64,000 nucleotides of DNA from Cyclobacteriaceae bacterium (GTDB lineage: Bacteria > Bacteroidota > Bacteroidia > Cytophagales > Cyclobacteriaceae). Each line of letters opens with the position of its first letter. Position 1 is the stretch's first letter. The stretch is from the NCBI GenBank assembly GCA_012033595.1, contig JAAUQL010000012.1, positions 7,208-71,207 on the forward strand, written 5' to 3'. Positions 21,291 to 58,069 of the stretch are shown piece by piece. The notes under the pieces were generated by a model. That model ran no database searches, had not been told where the DNA came from, and worked only from the letters and a program-made list of their open reading frames with translations. A program made the position numbers and the translations under genes.

Positions 21291-21301
21291 ATTTATGATT
21301 C

Positions 21302-21904
21302 TTATTTTATTACGATTAATTCAAATTTGATTTCCACTTCCTCTCCGGTCTCAATTTGACCAAACATTGCCGATGGAGGCACCATGTCGTAGTCTTTCAT
21401 ATTGAGTTTGTAGCTGCCGCTAAAACTCATTTTATTGTCTTCAAGTAATTTGCCCTCAACCGGGAAACTGACTTCTTTGGTTTTGCCTGCGATGGTCAAT
21501 TTGCCTTTGCTCGTCACCGTAAATGCCTTGTCGCTACCGACAGTAATTGTGTTTTCGCCCAGGTCGAAAACAATCTCCGGGTGCTGTTCTGCTTTTAGTG
21601 CTTCGTAGGTTTTATTGTCCATGGTGGCTCCTCGTGCACTTATAATGCTTTTAACAGGCACAGTTACCTTCACATTTTTGATATCTTCTCCTTTTTTAAG
21701 CTTTCCTTTATTGATCAATTTATCACTGGTTTCTACATAACCTGTTATGGTTTTCACTTCACTTGTCCAGTCATGCAGCGTAGAAGTGCCAGCCACAGTC
21801 ATCGTTGACGCGTCTGAAATGGTGTACCTGGCCGTCTGCGCCTGTACGGACAGACTGAGCATGGTGATAAAAAAAACCAAAAGGAATAATCTGTAATTTT
21901 TCAT
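21302..21904 (-). CDS. YceI family periplasmic protein
   Basis: 200 aa with a signal peptide. It shows a YceI-like pattern (STLHDWTSEVK... KGKLTIAGKTKEVSFPV... IEFELIV). Confidence 0.7.
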   Translation of the reverse strand: MKNYRLFLLVFFITMLSLSVQAQTARYTISDASTMTVAGTSTLHDWTSEVKTITGYVETSDKLINKGKLKKGEDIKNVKVTVPVKSIISARGATMDNKTYEALKAEQHPEIVFDLGENTITVGSDKAFTVTSKGKLTIAGKTKEVSFPVEGKLLEDNKMSFSGSYKLNMKDYDMVPPSAMFGQIETGEEVEIKFELIVIK

Positions 21905-50068: not shown

Positions 50069-50743
50069 TTAAATCTTACTCGCCTCAAAGATAAAAGAGA
50101 ACAGAACAATATTGTTCAGGTATGACTTCAAATGACGCCGAAGGTGTTTCAAAGCTTTGGTAATTTGTTTTTCTACCACTTTTTTTGAAATATTCAGATG
50201 CCTGGCAATCTCTATATAGCTCATTTCCCCTGAACGGCTTAGATTAAAGATTAATTTGCACTTGGGAGGCAATGAATCTATTGCCAGCTTGGCCAAGCGC
50301 TCCAGGTCTTCGCGTTCTAACGAATCTTGTCCAAGATTTCTGGTGATTTCATCGATGGCTTGCAAGGGAAGGACATTTCGTGTTTTTCGGTTGTCTCGAA
50401 GATAATTAAGGGAACGGTTAACTACAGCTCTCGCAAGGAAAGGTGCAATTGGATCTTTAAGTCCTAGTCGATGACGTTTTGTCCAAATATTTAAAAACAT
50501 CTCCTGAACTATATCCTTGGCGGCTTCATTGTCCCCGACAATTTTAAAGGCCACTCTGATCATCCGATCAAAGTACAAATCATATAACAAATTAATGGAC
50601 TGCACATGATTTTTGCGCAACAATTCGAGGATGTCTTCATCACCTTTTTTGAAATGATCTGCCAACAAAGTATGGTTTTTAAAAATTTGTTTCCAATACA
50701 ATAAAGATAGGATAATTTCACATAAGTGTAGTTTATGGATCAT
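50069..50743 (-). CDS. ECF-type RNA polymerase sigma-70 factor without an adjacent anti-sigma gene
   Basis: 224 aa. Region 2 is AAKDIVQEMFLNIWTKRHRL...APFLARAVVNRSLNYLRD. Region 4 is KCKLIFNLSRSGEMSYIEIARHLNISKKVVEKQITKALKHLR. The start codon choice is uncertain. Confidence 0.8.
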   Translation of the reverse strand: MIHKLHLCEIILSLLYWKQIFKNHTLLADHFKKGDEDILELLRKNHVQSINLLYDLYFDRMIRVAFKIVGDNEAAKDIVQEMFLNIWTKRHRLGLKDPIAPFLARAVVNRSLNYLRDNRKTRNVLPLQAIDEITRNLGQDSLEREDLERLAKLAIDSLPPKCKLIFNLSRSGEMSYIEIARHLNISKKVVEKQITKALKHLRRHLKSYLNNIVLFSFIFEASKI

Positions 50744-51267
50744 GATTTCAAAATACGTTACTCTAGATTGAGTTAAGTGGAATCAAGTTACCTTCCAAAA
50801 CACATACACCTTTCATTACAATGGACACCATTTAACATTTTCGTCAACAAGCGGAACAATACCATTTTTAACGTAGACCATGTTTTAGATTATCTGGAAA
50901 TTTGCCCACCATTTCCTGTGTTGCTGAAAAGGGTTTTTAGGTAAAAATGGATTTTTGAGAAGGAAGATTGCAATTAAAAGACCTTGCTCTGTACAATTCA
51001 AATCAGTTCTAAATGCTAAACTCCACTAGTTTCGCTTCTCAGTTGACACTCCGAATAAAACTTATTGTCCTTAGTTGACTATGTCGTCAGAAATTCTAAA
51101 AGGACAAATATATTAAGCAACAGTTTATGGAAATGCAGACATTGACGGGATTGAATAAAAATGCATGAAATATTTAAGCTATAAGCTTTGAAATTAAAAT
51201 TATATCCCACACTTTTGTTTTCGCTTAAATCAGCAGAATAAAATTTTAAAATTTATATATTATTTAA

Positions 51268-51333
51268 ATGAAAGTATTGTCTTCTATAGTAGTTCTAGTC
51301 CTTTCTGTCGTGGTCCTAATTAGCGGTGCATGA
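51268..51333 (+). CDS. branched-chain amino acid leader peptide of the ilv-leu operon (21 aa)
   Basis: Own reading: ATG AAA GTA TTG TCT TCT ATA GTA GTT CTA GTC CTT TCT GTC GTG GTC CTA ATT AGC GGT GCA TGA = MKVLSSIVVLVLSVVVLISGA. 14 of the 21 residues are Val/Leu/Ile. It lies immediately upstream of a terminator and ilvD. Confidence 0.7.
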   Translation: MKVLSSIVVLVLSVVVLISGA

Positions 51334-51365
51334 AGTGAAAGGTATGCTATAGTCACAAAAAACTG

Positions 51366-51398
51366 AAACCTTTCTCCAAAACAGAAAGGTTTTTTTTT
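51366..51398 (+). terminator. attenuator terminator of the ilv leader
   Basis: AAACCTTTCT (51366-51375) pairs with AGAAAGGTTT (51383-51392). This is a 10-bp stem with a 7-nt loop, and the T-run continues to 51398, 8 nt before the ilvD ATG. Confidence 0.75.
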
Positions 51399-51406
51399 AA
51401 TCTAAT

Positions 51407-53082
51407 ATGAAAATGGATATAAACAAGTACAGTAGTAAAATTACCCAGGACGAGAGCCTTCCCGCCGCACAGGCCATGCTTTATGCCATAGGCATGAAAG
51501 ATGCGGACATGAAAAAAGCCCAGATCGGAATAGTGAGCACAGGATACCAGGGCAATCCTTGCAATATGCACCTCAACGGCCTGGCCGATCGCATTAAGCA
51601 GGGCGTCGATCAAAACCCGGGACTTTTAGGATTGATATTTCATACGATTGGTGTAAGCGATGGCATCACCAATGGCACCGAGGGCATGAAATACTCCCTT
51701 CCTTCCAGAGAAATAATTGCTGACTCTATAGAGACCGTAGTGTGTGCTCAATTCTACGATGCGGTAGTTCCGGTGGTAGGTTGCGACAAAAACATGCCCG
51801 GCGCGATGATCGCCATGGGCAGGATAAACCGGCCTGGCATATTGGTATATGGAGGTACGGTAAAAAAAGGATCATGGAAAGGAAAAGACCTCAATATCGT
51901 TTCGGCTTTTGAAGCTTATGGCGAAAAACTGGCAGGTAAAATCAGCGAAGAAGATTATAAAGGAATCATAAAAAACTCCATACCCGGAGCGGGCGCCTGT
52001 GGGGGTATGTACACCGCCAATACCATGGCTGCGGCCATCGAATGCCTGGGCATGAGCTTGCCTTATTCCAGCTCTAACCCGGCCATAAGCGAAGAAAAAG
52101 GACACGAATGTTTTGATATTGGCAGGGCGATCAAACACCTGCTCGAAACAGACCTAAAACCCAGAGACATCATGACCAAGGCATCGTTTGAAAATGCCAT
52201 AGCCCTGATCATGGCCTTGGGCGGCTCTACCAATGCGGTGCTGCATTTATTGGCAATGGCCCGATCGGTGGAAGTAGATCTGAGCATAAACGATTTTCAG
52301 CGCATAAGTGACAAGACACCATTTGTTGCTGACCTGAAACCGAGTGGCGAATATCTGATAGAAGATCTGCACCACGTCGGTGGTGTACCCGGAGTAATGA
52401 AAATGTTGCTCAGAGAAGGCTACTTTGATGGCAACTGCATGACGGTGACCGGCAAGACACTGGGAGAAAACCTGGAGATGATCCAGGATCTGGAAAAGGC
52501 CAGAAAATCATCAGGCCGTTTAGCGACCCCATCAAGCCGGTCGGACATATACAAATACTCTATGGAAACCTGGCAGAAGAAGGTTCTGTGGCCAAAATCA
52601 CCGGCAAAGAAGGTGAATTTTTTACAGGGCCGGCCAAAGTGTTTAATGATGAGTTTGAAGCCATAAAAGGTATAGGTAGCACTGTGCAAAAAGGCGATGT
52701 GATCGTGATCAGGTACAGTGGACCAAAAGGTGCTCCCGGAATGCCTGAAATGCTTAAACCAACAGGAGTAGTGATGGGCGCCGGTCTCGGAAAAGACGTC
52801 GCGCTGATCACCGATGGCAGGTTTTCGGGAGGTTCACATGGATTTGTTGTCGGGCACATCACCCCGGAGGCATCGGAAGGTGGCTTGATTGGACTGCTAA
52901 AAGATGGCGATATCATTACCATTGATGCCAAAAACAACCGCCTTGAAGCCGATGTTTCAGAAGAAGAAATCGCTTTACGCAAGAGTCAGTGGCAAAAACC
53001 AGCTTATAAAGCAAAAACAGGAATTTTAAAAAAGTTTATTGATACCGTTTCCACAGCCTCGACGGGCTGTGTTACAACTTAA
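51407..53082 (+). CDS. ilvD: dihydroxy-acid dehydratase, split by one homopolymer indel
   Basis: ORFs 51407..52666 and 52588..53082. IlvD/Edd motifs are present ([33 protein letters not shown]). One extra base in GGAAAAGG (52504-52509) gives [43 protein letters not shown]. Confidence 0.95.
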
Positions 53083-53093
53083 AATTATCTAAT

Positions 53094-54833
53094 ATGGGAC
53101 AGATGGAAACATTAAAAGAATCATCGACCGGCATCACCAAAAAGAAAATGAGGATTTCAGGGTCTGAAGCTGTAATCTTATCCTTGCTCGAAGAAGGTGT
53201 CGATACAGTGTTTGGTTACCCGGGAGGAGCCATCATGCCGATTTACGATGCGTTGTATGGGTATAAGGAGCAATTGAACCATTATTTGGTCAGGCATGAA
53301 CAAGGCGCTGCACATGCAGCCCAGGGATATGCACGTGTCACCGGAAAAGTTGGTGTATGTTTTGCCACCAGTGGGCCAGGCGCTACCAATCTAATGACGG
53401 GCATAGCCGATGCACAAATAGATTCCACCCCTATTGTGTGCATTACCGGCCAGGTGGTGGCTCATCTGTTAGGTACCGACGCTTTTCAGGAATCTGATAT
53501 TCTGGGCATTTCCATGCCCATCACCAAGTGGAATTTTCAGGTAACAAAAGCAGAAGAAATACCTGCTGCCATAGCCAGGGCATTTTACATAGCAAAAACA
53601 GGAAGGCCGGGGCCGGTGCTTATCGATATTACTAAAAATGCCCAGTCTGCTGAGTTGGATTTTGAGTACACCCCCTGTAAAAAAATCAGGAGCTACCATC
53701 CCTACCCCGTCATACAGGATAAGGACATCATGGATGCGGCAAAAGTGATCAACAATGCCAAAAAGCCATTTTTACTTTCAGGACATGGAGTCTTGATCTC
53801 CGGGGCAGAAAAGGCCGTGCTTGCGCTTTCCGAAAAGGCGAATATCCCCGTAGCTTCTACCCTATTGGGTCTTTCTTCTTTCCCACCAGACCATCCCAAC
53901 TATGTGGGCTATCTGGGAATGCACGGCAATTACGCCCCCAATGTGCTCACCAACGAGTGCGATGTGCTCATTGCCATAGGAATGCGCTTCGATGACCGGG
54001 TGACCGGCGACGTAAACCAATATGCCAAAAAGGCCAAGGTGGTACATATAGAGATAGACCCGGCTGAAATTGACAAGATTATTAAAACTGAAGTTGCCAT
54101 CAATGCCGATGCCAACCAGGCTCTTGAGTGCCTGTTGCCATATATCAACAAGGCCGACCATAGTGAGTGGATCAATGAATTTAGAAAACTCGATAAAATA
54201 GAGTATGACAAGGTCATTAAAAACGACCTATACCCCACCAGCGATAAAATAAAAATGGGGGAAGTAGTGCGTCTGATCTCAGAAATATCTAAAGGAGAAG
54301 CCATAGTGGTGACGGATGTAGGCCAGCATCAGATGATAGCCAACCGCTACTATAAATACAAGAAGCCCAACCATATCGTTACCTCCGGTGGTTTGGGCAC
54401 CATGGGTTTTGCCTTGCCGGCGGCCATGGGGGCGCAGATTGGCAAAATGAAAGAAAAAGTAATATCCATTGCCGGCGATGGTGGTTTTCAAATGACACTT
54501 CAGGAATTAGGAACCATTTTCCAATACAATATCCCGGTAAAGATCGTGGTACTCAACAACAACTTCCTGGGGATGGTAAGGCAATGGCAACAGTTGTTTT
54601 TCAAAAAAAGGTACTCTTTTACTGAGATGACCAACCCTGATTTTATTAAAATTGCAGATGGTTACGGAATAGTTGCCAACCGTGTAGAGCAACGTGAAGA
54701 TCTGGAAAAAGCTTTGCAAACCATGTACGATCATGATGGGCCTTATTTTCTGGAAGTAAAAGTAGAAATGGAAGAGAACGTATTCCCGATGGTACCTTCT
54801 GGGGATTCAGTATCCAATATCCGTTTGGAATAA
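53094..54833 (+). CDS. ilvB: acetolactate synthase (biosynthetic), large catalytic subunit
   Basis: 579 aa. It has a ThDP enzyme N-terminal domain (GYPGGAIMPIYDAL, RHEQGAAHAAQGYARVTGK) and the ThDP-binding motif GDGGFQM...NN. Confidence 0.95.
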   Translation: MGQMETLKESSTGITKKKMRISGSEAVILSLLEEGVDTVFGYPGGAIMPIYDALYGYKEQLNHYLVRHEQGAAHAAQGYARVTGKVGVCFATSGPGATNLMTGIADAQIDSTPIVCITGQVVAHLLGTDAFQESDILGISMPITKWNFQVTKAEEIPAAIARAFYIAKTGRPGPVLIDITKNAQSAELDFEYTPCKKIRSYHPYPVIQDKDIMDAAKVINNAKKPFLLSGHGVLISGAEKAVLALSEKANIPVASTLLGLSSFPPDHPNYVGYLGMHGNYAPNVLTNECDVLIAIGMRFDDRVTGDVNQYAKKAKVVHIEIDPAEIDKIIKTEVAINADANQALECLLPYINKADHSEWINEFRKLDKIEYDKVIKNDLYPTSDKIKMGEVVRLISEISKGEAIVVTDVGQHQMIANRYYKYKKPNHIVTSGGLGTMGFALPAAMGAQIGKMKEKVISIAGDGGFQMTLQELGTIFQYNIPVKIVVLNNNFLGMVRQWQQLFFKKRYSFTEMTNPDFIKIADGYGIVANRVEQREDLEKALQTMYDHDGPYFLEVKVEMEENVFPMVPSGDSVSNIRLE

Positions 54834-54849: not shown

Positions 54850-55449
54850 ATGACAGATATATATCAAGATTCACCAGAACAGTTGGGCGAAAAGCAATAC
54901 ACCATTTCGATCCTAACCGAAGACAAGCCAGGCTTGCTCAATACAGTCACCATCGTCTTTACCAGGCGCAAGCTAAATATCGACATGATCAACGTTTCTG
55001 CCTCTGAGGTGGCAGGAGTAAGCAGATATACCATTGTGCTCACCACCACCAAAGACCAGGTAGAGAAGGTTGTGAAGCAAATCCGCAAGCATGTGGACGT
55101 GCTCGGCGCCTTTGTGTATGAAGAAGACGCCATACACTACCAGGAAATCGCCCTCTACAAGGTGCCTACAGAAATATTTATGGACAGTGTAGAAGTGGAA
55201 CAAATAGTAAGGGCAAACAATGCCCGAATACTGGTGATAGAGCGCGACTATACCGTAATCGAAAAAACCGGACATAAGGAAGAAACCTCTGCCCTATTCA
55301 ATACATTGAAAAAATATGGGGTATTGGAATTTGTGAGATCAGGCCGGATTGCGGTATCTAAATCAAAAAGAAAAACGGAGGCTTACCTCGAAGAATTGGA
55401 AAATTCAACAACACATAGTTTATATAATAATAACGGAACAGTTAAATAA
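54850..55449 (+). CDS. ilvN: acetolactate synthase small (regulatory) subunit
   Basis: 199 aa. It has an ACT domain N-terminus (YTISILTEDKPGLLNTVTIVFTRRKLNIDMINVS) and sits between ilvB and ilvC. Confidence 0.85.
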   Translation: MTDIYQDSPEQLGEKQYTISILTEDKPGLLNTVTIVFTRRKLNIDMINVSASEVAGVSRYTIVLTTTKDQVEKVVKQIRKHVDVLGAFVYEEDAIHYQEIALYKVPTEIFMDSVEVEQIVRANNARILVIERDYTVIEKTGHKEETSALFNTLKKYGVLEFVRSGRIAVSKSKRKTEAYLEELENSTTHSLYNNNGTVK

Positions 55450-55450
55450 A

Positions 55451-56497
55451 ATGGCAAAAATCAATTTTGGTGGCGTCGAAGAAAACGTAGTGACGCGAGA
55501 TGAATTCCCATTGGAAAAAGCAAGGGAAGTAATGAAAGATGAAACGATAGCTATAATTGGCTATGGCGTGCAAGGTCCCGGACAGGCGCTCAACCTGAAG
55601 GATAATGGTTTTAATGTAATCGTAGGTCAGAGAAAACCTTCTAAGTCTTATGACAAAGCTATGCAAGACGGCTGGGTGCCCGGCAAAACCTTGTTTTCCA
55701 TAGAGGAGGCACTCGAAAAAGGAACCATCATTTTCTACCTGCTCTCTGACGCAGCTCAAATCGCCATGTGGCCCACAGTGAAAAAACACCTCACCGAAGG
55801 AAAATCACTGTATTTTTCTCACGGATTTGGCATTACATACAAAGAAAGAACCGGTATAGTGCCTCCGGAAAATATCGACGTGATGCTAGTTGCCCCCAAA
55901 GGTTCGGGCACCAGCCTGAGAAGACTTTTCGTTGAGGGAAAAGGCCTCAACTCCAGCTTCGCCATCCACCAGGACTACACCGGCAACGCCAGGGAAAAAG
56001 TAGTGGCATTGGGTATCGGTGTGGGATCGGGTTATCTGTTCGAAACCACCTTCAAAAGAGAAGTCTATAGCGACCTTACCGGCGAAAGAGGCACGTTGAT
56101 GGGCGCTATCCAAGGTATATTCGCCGCACAATACGACCTCTTGCGCAGCAAGGGTCACTCTCCTTCTGAGGCATTTAACGAAACAGTGGAAGAGGCTACA
56201 CAATCGCTCTATCCTCTGGTGGCCGAAAACGGCATGGACTGGATGTACGCCAACTGCTCAACCACTGCCCAGCGGGGTGCCCTTGACTGGTGGAAAAAAT
56301 TTAGAGACGCGACCGCTCCTGTATTCAAAGAGTTGTACGAAAGTGTGGCCGCTGGTGAAGAAGCACAAAAATCGATCGATTCCAACAGCCAGGAAGATTA
56401 CAGGGTAAAATTGGAAGCTGAGTTGAAAGAAATGAGGGAATCTGAAATGTGGATTGCCGGTGCTGCGGTCAGGAAATTGAGACCGGAGAATAATTAA
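55451..56497 (+). CDS. ilvC: ketol-acid reductoisomerase (class I)
   Basis: ORF 55349..56497 trimmed to Met35 (MAKINFGG), one nt after the ilvN stop. It has the Rossmann motif IIGYGVQGPGQALNLKDNG and the motifs FSHGF and ERGTLMG. Confidence 0.95.
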   Translation: MAKINFGGVEENVVTRDEFPLEKAREVMKDETIAIIGYGVQGPGQALNLKDNGFNVIVGQRKPSKSYDKAMQDGWVPGKTLFSIEEALEKGTIIFYLLSDAAQIAMWPTVKKHLTEGKSLYFSHGFGITYKERTGIVPPENIDVMLVAPKGSGTSLRRLFVEGKGLNSSFAIHQDYTGNAREKVVALGIGVGSGYLFETTFKREVYSDLTGERGTLMGAIQGIFAAQYDLLRSKGHSPSEAFNETVEEATQSLYPLVAENGMDWMYANCSTTAQRGALDWWKKFRDATAPVFKELYESVAAGEEAQKSIDSNSQEDYRVKLEAELKEMRESEMWIAGAAVRKLRPENN

Positions 56498-56567: not shown

Positions 56568-58069
56568 ATGGCTGATAGATTATATATATTCGATACCACG
56601 CTGAGGGATGGGGAACAAGTACCCGGCTGCCAATTAAATACAGTTGAAAAAATTGAAGTAGCCAAGAGACTCGAAGAACTAGGCGTGGATATAATCGAAG
56701 CCGGCTTTCCTATTTCCAGTCCCGGCGATTTCAATTCCGTGGTAGAAATCTCCAAGGCCGTCACCTGGCCAACCATCTGTGCACTGACCAGAGCAGTAGA
56801 AAAAGATATCGACGTAGCAGCAGATGCTTTGAAATATGCCAAAAAGGGCCGGATTCATACCGGTATTGGCACGTCACCCTACCACATTCAGTACAAACTA
56901 AAATCCAACCAGGAAGAAATCATCGAACGTGCCAAGCGGGCTGTTGCCTACGCCAAAAAGTATGTTGAGGATGTGGAGTTTTATGCTGAAGATGCCGGAA
57001 GGACTGATAATGAATACCTGGCCAGGTGATAGAAGCGGTAATCGCCGCCGGTGCCACTGTTGTGAATATTCCGGATACCACAGGCTATTGCCTGCCCGCA
57101 GACTATGGCGCCAAGATAAAATATCTAGTAGATAATGTTAAAAACATAGATAAAGCCATCATATCCACGCATTGCCACAACGACCTGGGAATGGCCACGG
57201 CCAACTCCATTTCGGGCGTGATCAACGGCGCACGACAGGTTGAAGTCACCATCAACGGCATTGGCGAACGCGCAGGCAATACCTCGCTGGAAGAAGTGAC
57301 CATGATCTTGCGCAGTCACAAAGAATTGGGCATCGACACACAAATCAACTCACAAAATATATATCAGATGAGTCGGTTGGTCTCCAACCTAATGAATATG
57401 CCGGTGCAACCCAACAAGGCAATCGTAGGTCGAAATGCTTTTGCACATTCATCGGGCATCCATCAGGATGGCGTTTTGAAGCACCGCGAAAACTACGAGA
57501 TTATCGATCCCAAAGATGTGGGCATCAACGAATCGAGCATAGTGTTGACTGCACGAAGTGGTCGCGCTGCCCTCAAACACCGTCTGAGCATATTGGGCTT
57601 TGAATTGGAAAAAGAAAAACTTGACGAAGTGTATGAGGAATTTCTGAAACTTGCAGACAAGAAAAAGGACATTAAAGATGAAGACATCACCATGCTGGTG
57701 GGTGATGTGAAAAAAGAAGACCGCAAGTTGAACCTGGAATATTTGCAGGTGGTCACCGGCAAAGGATTGGAACCGATGGCTTCGGTACGCATTTCTATTG
57801 CAGGTGAGTTGTTCGATGCGTCATCTGTAGGCAACGGACCCGTAGATGCGGCGATTAAGGCCATTAAAGTTATCATTAAGAAAAAAGTAATCCTCGAAGA
57901 ATTCCTGATCCAGGCGATTACCCGTGGAAGCGATGACGTGGGCAAAGTGCATATGCAGGTGGCATATAACGATCAGATTTTTTATGGTTTTGGAGCCAAT
58001 ACCGATATAGTCACTGCCTCGGCAGAGGCCTTTATTGATGCGCTCAATAAAATCCCCAGCAAACAATAA
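56568..58069 (+). CDS. leuA: 2-isopropylmalate synthase (LeuA/CimA family, short form), split by one indel
   Basis: ORFs 56568..57029 and 57026..58069. The N-terminus is [26 protein letters not shown] is present, and there is a C-terminal LeuA dimerisation/regulatory domain. One extra G at 57025-57026 gives [27 protein letters not shown]. Confidence 0.9.

Follow-up and report, generated by a model that had tools for sequence, protein, structure and literature searches.

A probable leader-peptide attenuator for branched-chain amino acid biosynthesis upstream of ilvD-ilvB-ilvN-ilvC-leuA in a Cytophagales-like bacterium

We analysed the region preceding the branched-chain amino acid (BCAA) biosynthesis genes ilvD-ilvB-ilvN-ilvC-leuA in a 64,000-nucleotide stretch of DNA from a Cyclobacteriaceae bacterium (GenBank assembly GCA_012033595.1, contig JAAUQL010000012.1, positions 7,208 to 71,207; hereafter the window, numbered from its first letter). 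Sequence comparison indicates that this region very probably holds a ribosome-mediated, or leader-peptide, transcription attenuator through which expression of the five genes would follow the availability of tRNA charged with Val, Leu or Ile. An earlier note, made from the letters of the window, had proposed a ribosome-stalling attenuator at this place, and the proposal is strengthened by 30 related leaders in which a conserved mini open reading frame (ORF), a terminator, a covarying antiterminator and a fitting spacing recur. From these features we infer translation of the leader ORF, termination of transcription at the hairpin and a response of read-through to branched-chain amino acids.

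A leader ORF, a terminator and an antiterminator strand

The leader ORF occupies 51268-51333 on the plus strand (as do all features below unless stated otherwise), comprises 21 codons and a TGA at 51331-51333, and translates as MKVLSSIVVLVLSVVVLISGA. On recounting, 13 of its 21 residues are branched-chain (7 Val, 4 Leu and 2 Ile; fraction 0.62), not 14 as first counted, and 11 of the 12 candidate sensor codons 7-18 (IVVLVLSVVVLI, 51286..51321) specify isoleucine, leucine or valine (ILV). Such density is rare: in a census of short ORFs (ATG start, 10-40 codons, both strands of the window), a stretch of eight residues with at least seven ILV was found in 2 of 637, the leader included. The other one lies at 21295-21330 (+) and encodes MILILLRLIQI, likewise with 7/8 ILV.

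The earlier note had numbered four RNA segments from the 5' end, with 3:4 pairing as the terminator, 2:3 as the antiterminator and 1:2 as a further alternative. Direct reading bears out the positions that it gave for these segments, for the T-run and for the ilvD ATG: CCTTTCTG lies at 51300-51307, GAAAGGT at 51337-51343 (separated from the TGA by three nucleotides), AAACCTTTCT at 51366-51375 and AGAAAGGTTT at 51383-51392, and the ATG at 51407 is 8 nt beyond the end of the T-run (51398). The hairpin with a T-run that had been placed before ilvD was also found by a consensus terminator scan, which called an 11-pair stem rather than the proposed 10 pairs, with a 7-nt loop and a T-tail (51365-51393; hairpin energy -11.1 kcal/mol). 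Its 5' arm is segment 3 (GAAACCUUUCU, 51365..51375; seen in the scan, the folds and the relatives), of which 51368-51374 can also pair with segment 2a, and its 3' arm is segment 4 (AGAAAGGUUUU, 51383..51398; seen in the scan), which runs into a U9 tract. Two terminator-like sites were called in 50700-51500, being this one hairpin read on both strands, while shuffled sequences gave 0.2 +/- 0.5. The hairpin sequence CCTTTCT...AGAAAGG occurs once in the window, which rules out a generic repeat or repetitive extragenic palindromic (REP)-like element.

The putative antiterminator strand, segment 2a (GAAAGGU, 51337..51343), was recognised by complementarity and by homologous strands in relatives, and may pair either with segment 1b or with segment 3. 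Folding returned the 7-bp 2:3 helix that had been predicted (51337-51343 with 51368-51374), with an energy of -6.9 kcal/mol.

Conservation of the leader in relatives

Relatives were collected by anchoring on the N-terminal part of IlvD, giving two sets of 80 loci each, one taken from GTDB species genomes and the other from metagenomes, referred to below by L numbers. The nearest (92-82% IlvD identity) come from metagenome-assembled genomes (MAGs) labelled Cytophagales, Roseivirgaceae or Cyclobacteriaceae. A conserved BCAA-rich mini-ORF upstream of ilvD, sought here as the earlier note had suggested, is present: 30 distinct sequences, from Cytophagales and Myroides genomes and from metagenomes, have an ILV-run mini-ORF at a distance of 50-180 nt before ilvD, and they fall into about seven families. 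The peptides of these families (MKVLSSIVVLVLSVVVLISGA; MRLISLLLVSVVVIVDNPC; MPILVVITIIVIIVIVQWRG; M..SILSVIIINVLVVPYQDS; MIKSFELIVILINVVVIQMTG; MIPRLIDILLILVVVLIQHKE; and, in Myroides, MKNLVNILVVLIIVIVVNTFARESLC) cannot be aligned outside the ILV run. What all 30 leaders share is the mini-ORF with its ILV run, an intrinsic terminator, and a strand complementary to the 5' arm of that terminator, which adjoins or overlaps the stop codon.

Within the window's own family, the start, stop and frame of the leader are kept in 12 close relatives, L004 having an in-frame 3-nt deletion. Codons 9-12 and 14-18 specify ILV in every one of them, save for the one-codon gap that L004 has at codon 17. In codons 14-16 (GTC GTG GTC, 51307-51315) the amino acids are invariant and the synonymous sites almost so, and the CTGTCGTGGTC string of this Val triplet is found again in the more distant L006 and L007. 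Near-invariance at synonymous sites suggests a constraint beyond the amino acid, either at the RNA level or on codon choice.

In 30/30 leaders the best complement of the terminator 5' arm is located at the leader stop codon or overlaps it, usually as TGA-GAAAGG(T). Loci L040, L044 and L050 have a GAATGG strand with a CCATTC/GAATGG terminator, and Myroides has a wholly different terminator, GCCTCCC/GGGAGGC, with a matching GGGAG strand. The alternative helices thus covary among relatives, as an attenuator of the kind first proposed would have it, segment 2 changing together with both arms of the terminator (GAAAGG, GAATGG, GGGAG). In an alignment of 25 sequences the 2:3 positions are paired in 92.4% of cases (41-67% in slid registers) and the 3:4 positions in 91.3%, with three covarying pairs in 3:4; an A-U to U-A flip in 2:3 in L040/L050 coincides with a U-A to A-U flip in the same column of 3:4. 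Shuffled sequences rarely matched the 2:3 complementarity of most leaders tested, those at least as good per 1000 numbering 0 in L001, L007 and L042, 2 in L049, 6 in L040 and 72 in L066. The significance of the complementarity in the window derives from these relatives and not from the window alone, so far as comparison of sequences can establish it.

Spacing between the ILV run, the stop codon and segment 2

In 30/30 sequences segment 2 begins to pair 13-19 nt downstream of the point where the last codon of the ILV run starts. Counted from the start of the stop codon, its last paired base is 8-12 nt downstream, except in Myroides, where it lies 5 nt before the stop. The window conforms to both distances, with 18 nt from the first base of codon 18 to the beginning of segment 2 and 12 nt from the first base of the stop to its end. 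The length of the peptide tail varies between families while both distances hold. A ribosome protects roughly 12 nt beyond the codon in its A site, and given the observed spacing segment 2 would therefore be just free when a ribosome stalls in the ILV run and covered when the ribosome stands at the stop codon. The case for translation of the ORF as the sensor is made most strongly by this conservation of distances.

Further leaders and the extent of the family

In MAGs of Flavobacterium and other Bacteroidota, additional ILV leaders were found at a distance of about 1 kb before ilvD; a T-run follows each of them 51-59 nt downstream. They comprise MKQAIIIPIIIIIPME (L068 1980-2030; L069 612-662; L070 1979-2029; L137 179-229), MFKVVTLILEIILISES (L063 1970-2023) and, in a Flavobacterium MAG, two tandem copies of MNSYINSIIVIIIVNSH (L074 892-945 and 1048-1104). 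These leaders presumably precede an earlier gene of the operon.

No ILV-run leader was detected by an ATG-only scan of up to 3 kb upstream of ilvD in L008-L039 (Prolixibacteraceae, Marinilabiliaceae and other Bacteroidales; 72-79% IlvD identity), and the BCAA genes at these loci may be regulated otherwise or controlled from an operon start that lies farther away. Chitinophagales (L072, L073, L075, L138) as well as L053, L123 and L127-L132 have conserved short ORFs before ilvD that were not counted as leaders, because they are part of long conserved stretches reaching ilvD that resemble the 3' ends of upstream coding genes.

We lean towards regarding the window element as a member of a single homologous family of ILV-leader attenuators that is widespread in Bacteroidota and sometimes occurs in tandem copies. 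The proposed range covers Cytophagales and Flavobacteriales (Myroides, Flavobacterium), and the signature would be a TGA-GAAAGG strand pairing with a terminator CCTTTCT.

The 1:2 domain and the number of segments

Folded without constraints, the 151 nt from 51255 to 51405 adopt a structure of -34.3 kcal/mol (z = -3.57 against dinucleotide shuffles) that consists of a 1:2 domain and the terminator. The 1:2 pairing had been put forward as a helix of 6 bp; what the folds give instead is a nested multi-helix domain of 83 nt (51277-51358) with 25 predicted pairs, which on its own reaches -21.8 kcal/mol (z = -2.96). Its helices join 51277-80 to 51355-58, 51284-91 to 51345-52 (1a:2b), 51300-05 to 51337-42 (1b:2a), 51308-12 to 51329-33, and 51315-16 to 51325-26. 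Segment 1a (CUAUAGUA, 51284..51291), the predicted partner of 2b, appears in both the minimum free energy (MFE) and the centroid structures and is kept in the RNAalifold consensus; segment 2b (UGCUAUAG, 51345..51352) is likewise seen in the MFE, the relatives and RNAalifold. Segment 1b (CCUUUC, 51300..51305, codons 11-13), the partner of 2a in the MFE structure, corresponds to segment 1 of the earlier note and is 90% paired in relatives. The inner hairpin (UCGUG:CAUGA and CC:GG, 51308..51333), which contains the stop codon, is also in the MFE structure and is 92.8% paired in relatives. The energies that the short helices had been said to need are thus strong for the 1:2 domain, at -21.8 kcal/mol, and weak for 2:3, at -6.9 kcal/mol.

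Comparison establishes, at the level of sequence, the core of segments 2, 3 and 4. Of the four-segment design, this three-segment core recurs in all of the roughly seven families, while support for segment 1 is confined to the window's own. This raises the alternative of an attenuator in which 1:2 has no anti-antiterminator function and the choice between 2:3 and 3:4 depends solely on where the ribosome stands relative to the strand embedded at the stop codon; in the window family, 1:2 would then be incidental, or only an element for polymerase pausing or RNA stability. Such a design would account for the universality of the core and its spacing, for 1:2 pairing that does not rise above shuffles in L040, L042 and L049, and for an inner 1:2 register that differs between the single-sequence MFE structure and RNAalifold, whose consensus keeps 1a:2b and the terminator and shifts the inner pairs. 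The register of 1b:2a is moreover ambiguous in relatives with a longer segment 2.

We nevertheless consider a three-segment device unlikely at this locus, as 1:2 is the most stable leader structure in the window and is 90% paired in the 12 close relatives, against 34-54% when slid. Helix 1a:2b is 87.5% paired in these relatives and has two covarying pairs, and the near-invariant synonymous sites of codons 14-16 point in the same direction. Only 18 of 1000 shuffles equalled or exceeded the 1:2 complementarity of the window, and family G2 also pairs CUACUUCUC with GAGAGGUAAG. A fourth segment is accordingly probable for this locus and its family only, 1:2 as a universal feature being unsupported outside that family by the shuffle tests of L040, L042 and L049. 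That all four segments act as proposed is, in our estimation, fairly likely.

Proposed mechanism

Under the attenuator reading, transcription would begin about 45 nt upstream of the leader ATG at a promoter of Bacteroidota type, and the 21-codon leader would be translated while RNA polymerase advances. Were Val, Leu or Ile scarce, a ribosome would stall within codons 7-18 (51286-51321), covering 1a/1b and leaving 2a free. With the edge of the stalled ribosome about 12 nt past its A-site codon, 2a (51337-51343) could then pair with the nascent 51368-51374, and this 2a:3 pairing would occupy the terminator 5' arm, so that the polymerase could read through into ilvD. Were all three amino acids plentiful, the ribosome would reach the TGA at 51331-51333 and cover 2a, allowing 3:4 with its U9 tract to form and transcription to stop at about 51398. 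If the leader were not translated at all, the 1:2 domain (-21.8 kcal/mol) would sequester segment 2, which again would lead to termination.

The effect of a ribosome was modelled by masking a 28-nt footprint and folding the remaining RNA. When codons 14-15 occupied the A site and the RNA was cut off at 51379, short of segment 4, 2:3 was part of the MFE structure; when the ribosome was placed on the stop codon, it hid segment 2 and 3:4 alone formed.

Several observations weigh against this reading. For a ribosome whose A site is on codons 16-18, nested folding favours 1a:2b over 2:3, a fold for which the helix would have to close around the ribosome. The terminator stem has merely three G-C pairs. 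The 2:3 helix of the window is short (7 bp) and, at -6.9 kcal/mol, weaker than 3:4 at -11.1 kcal/mol; in classical attenuators, too, 2:3 is weaker than 3:4. It is the weakest of its family, relatives having 8-12 bp, because a T at 51336 replaces the A of the sister's AGAGAAAGG, so that the helix drops from 9 to 7 bp. Its complementarity barely beats shuffles, 52 of 1000 being at least as good (p = 0.052). There is no 2:3 covariation inside the closest family, where the terminator arm is invariant, and the covariation across families amounts to few independent events. Segments 1 and 2 complement each other no better than shuffles in L040 (621/1000), L042 (922/1000) and L049 (456/1000). Lastly, the apparent frameshifts in ilvD and leuA described below would, if real, mean that the operon is decaying.

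Two other explanations would dispense with amino-acid sensing or with termination. The mini-ORF could be a genuine gene for a small hydrophobic membrane peptide, such as a toxin-like or regulatory micro-protein, that has its own terminator and senses no amino acid; at 21 residues with an unbroken hydrophobic core, it does resemble a single transmembrane segment. This is very improbable: its hydrophobic residues are almost exclusively Ile, Leu and Val, with a core nearly devoid of Phe, Met, Ala and Trp, the peptides of the roughly seven families have nothing alignable beyond the ILV run, and the element always lies upstream of BCAA biosynthesis genes. A free-standing peptide gene would also leave unexplained the covariation of the stop-codon strand with the terminator and its spacing from the ILV run. 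Less credible still is a 3:4 hairpin acting mainly on ilvD translation, as structure before the start codon, or on RNA stability rather than on termination, for even though only 6-13 nt separate the end of the U-tract from the ilvD ATG in the window and its close family, and translation initiation in Bacteroidota probably depends on A/U-rich sequence free of structure before the start codon, the hairpin lies 17-124 nt upstream of ilvD in other families, too distant to mask the start, is always followed by at least six U, the signature of an intrinsic terminator, and in Flavobacterium psychrophilum is part of leader-plus-hairpin units arranged in tandem far from the first gene.

Comparison with known attenuators

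The leader-peptide attenuator that we favour follows the logic of the enterobacterial leaders. Those of ilvGMEDA (ilvL), ilvBN (ivbL) and leu in E. coli and Salmonella are likewise short ORFs full of codons for the end product, ilvL being multivalent for Ile, Leu and Val as the window leader is. They too form mutually exclusive 1:2, 2:3 and 3:4 helices, 3:4 being the intrinsic terminator and a stalled ribosome selecting the antiterminator. The window nevertheless has no homology of sequence or structure to them: its leader is shorter (21 codons, against 32 in ilvL), its helices are shorter and A/U-rich, its antiterminator strand abuts or contains the stop codon, and its gene order is ilvD-ilvBN-ilvC-leuA. 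Ribosome-mediated attenuation of amino acid biosynthetic operons in general is summarised in part of PMC1183508.

None of the Rfam enterobacterial leaders (Leu_leader RF00512, Thr_leader RF00506, His_leader RF00514, Trp_leader RF00513, Phe_leader RF01859), nor any other Rfam 15 family, reached its gathering threshold in the whole 64-kb window or in 16 related loci. The best match in 50700-51500 (E <= 10) was Phe_leader at 20.8 bits and E = 0.79, which we take as chance or generic terminator similarity, given that it is far below the gathering threshold of 55. The same search, at E <= 10 in 50700-51500, returned no match to the T-box riboswitch (RF00230) or to any other known riboswitch.

The closest parallel comes from the same phylum. 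In the transcriptome map of F. psychrophilum (Guerin et al. 2021, ISME Commun, PMC9723704), the sections concerned propose attenuation by leader peptide for the ilvE, hisG, pheA and trpE operons, with ILV, His, Phe and Trp leader peptides put forward from the transcriptome maps. For ilvE, supplementary information (SI) D9 and Table S7 give the ILV-rich ORFs MRKFNIIPSIIIAIVIITTAKGML and MTTNTIIIISIIIRSFE in the mapped 5' transcribed region, where three leader-terminator units stand in tandem with ilvE as the first structural gene (PMC9723704). The ilvE hairpins listed there, AAGCCTTTCTC...GAGAAAGGCTTTTTT, closely resemble AAACCTTTCTCC...AGAAAGGTTTTTTTTT of the window, and on re-analysis of the published sequence we found a terminator-complementary strand at the stop codon, 12-15 nt past the last Ile codon. 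Judging from the listed ORFs, the ilvE leaders are dominated by Ile, whereas that of the window is dominated by Val and Leu. The tandem MNSYINSIIVIIIVNSH units of L074 echo the three ilvE units. In its account of these operons the study proposes attenuation from an ORF together with a transcript profile, and that account holds neither a dissection of an ilv antiterminator nor comparative evidence (PMC9723704). The remark in the earlier note that such attenuators have little experimental description in Bacteroidota is thus fair, though leader peptides had already been proposed in the F. psychrophilum sections cited.

The phylum also has the Bacteroid-trp motif (Rfam RF01692; Weinberg et al. 2010, PMC2864571), a candidate cis-regulatory RNA of Bacteroidetes which, in the F. 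psychrophilum tables concerned, maps upstream of trpE, the trpE operon being listed with the Trp-run leader MNTFLNNTWWWNNLRQTS (PMC9723704). It shows a leader-peptide strategy within the phylum, for another amino acid and with another RNA, and has no match at the window locus. A survey of 2010 recorded no leader-peptide system as known outside Proteobacteria and Actinobacteria (PMC2965389). We found nothing specific on leader peptides in the literature on Bacteroides Ribo-seq. The abstract of a 2004 comparative genomics study of attenuators by Vitreschak and colleagues (FEMS) reportedly mentions candidates in Bacteroidetes/Chlorobi.

Elsewhere, studies of S. aureus (PMC5794164), Listeria (PMC5864092) and Corynebacterium (PMC10272879) deal, in the parts concerned, with ilv/leu control that is cis-acting or BCAA-dependent; a leucine-rich attenuator peptide is named in the S. 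aureus title and a conserved upstream ORF (uORF) in the ilvBNC mRNA in the Corynebacterium title. For Actinobacteria ILV-rich candidate leader peptides and terminators are described upstream of ilvB in the relevant section of PMC1262725. The sequences of these Firmicute and actinobacterial ilv-leu leaders, so far as the sources display them, are unrelated to the window, and they are apparently independent inventions. In Streptomyces, mutating the regulatory codons was without effect according to that same section (PMC1262725), and by analogy an ILV-rich uORF with a terminator is no guarantee that classical attenuation would operate.

Genes of the locus and candidate promoter

All five genes before which the leader had been placed are recognised by Pfam: ilvD (dihydroxy-acid dehydratase; 51407..53082, as two ORFs at 51407-52666 and 52588-53082; ILVD_EDD_N, ILV_EDD_C), ilvB (acetolactate synthase large subunit; 53094-54833; TPP_enzyme N, M and C domains), ilvN (acetolactate synthase small subunit; 54850-55449; ALS_ss_C, ACT), ilvC (ketol-acid reductoisomerase; 55349..56497; KARI_N and KARI_C from residue 62 of the listed ORF) and leuA (2-isopropylmalate synthase; 56568..58069, as two ORFs; HMGL-like, HCS_D2, LeuA_dimer). 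The true start of ilvC is probably farther downstream, since the listed TTG start overlaps ilvN. In the alignment, ilvD is split by the loss of one base in a homopolymer near 52496, where the window has GGAAAA-GG and relatives have GGAAAAAGG/GGG, and leuA is split by the loss of one G near 57026, where the window has AGG-TG and AGGGTG is expected; the first leuA ORF aligns with PDB 3eeg up to ...FLAR, the matching end of the ORF being ...YLAR. These single-base losses look like long-read consensus errors rather than pseudogenisation, because two such indels hit otherwise well-conserved genes.

The upstream neighbour is a gene for an extracytoplasmic function (ECF)-type sigma factor at 50069-50743 on the minus strand (Pfam). 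Because it is divergent, the gap of about 660 nt is promoter and leader region and the hairpin ends no other gene, which rules out that it serves as terminator for the gene upstream. Near the locus, Pfam recognises a type IX secretion sorting domain, consistent with Bacteroidota, and a tRNA scan found no tRNA genes in the 64-kb window.

A candidate promoter lies within this gap. We take TTTG ... TAnnTTTG to be the -33/-7 promoter consensus of Bacteroidota, and on that assumption assign a candidate -33 element TTTG of sigma-A type at 51187..51190 and a candidate -7 element CACTTTTG at 51210..51217, with a spacing of 19 nt. A CTTTGAA(A/T)TTAAA block is kept at the position of the former in close relatives and other leader families, and families G1, G2 and G4 keep (G/C)ACTTTTG on the 5' side of their leaders. 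The whole block CTTTGAA(A/T)TTAAAAT...(G/C)ACTTTTG, about 50-80 nt 5' of the leader ATG, also occurs in L001-L007, L041-L047 and L081-L146. We infer that the TTTG/CACTTTTG pair could serve as the leader promoter, with transcription predicted to start at about 51222-51226, leaving about 45 nt untranslated before the leader ATG.

Significance

The mechanism is a textbook one and changes no concept, and similar leaders have already been flagged in F. psychrophilum. What the window element offers is a concrete, testable regulatory model for BCAA biosynthesis in an uncultured Cytophagales-like bacterium. Together with its 30 relatives, it would make leader-peptide attenuation a conserved and geometrically constrained device in Bacteroidota, and the useful comparative picture is one of an antiterminator fused to the stop codon, with conserved spacing, in many families and with no Rfam entry.

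Regulation by RNA has been little mapped in this phylum. One survey arrived at a mean of only about 6-8 cis-regulatory sites of Rfam type per genome for Bacteroidaceae, Chlorobia, Cyanobacteria and Thermotogae (PMC3766115). The alignments obtained here could seed a new Rfam family and improve the annotation of such mini-ORFs and premature terminators, which otherwise remain unannotated or are taken for hypothetical proteins. Bacteroidota largely lack initiation led by Shine-Dalgarno sequences. If the leaders do form a single family, they would provide a ready-made test of attenuation coupled to transcription and translation in a phylum that initiates largely without Shine-Dalgarno pairing.

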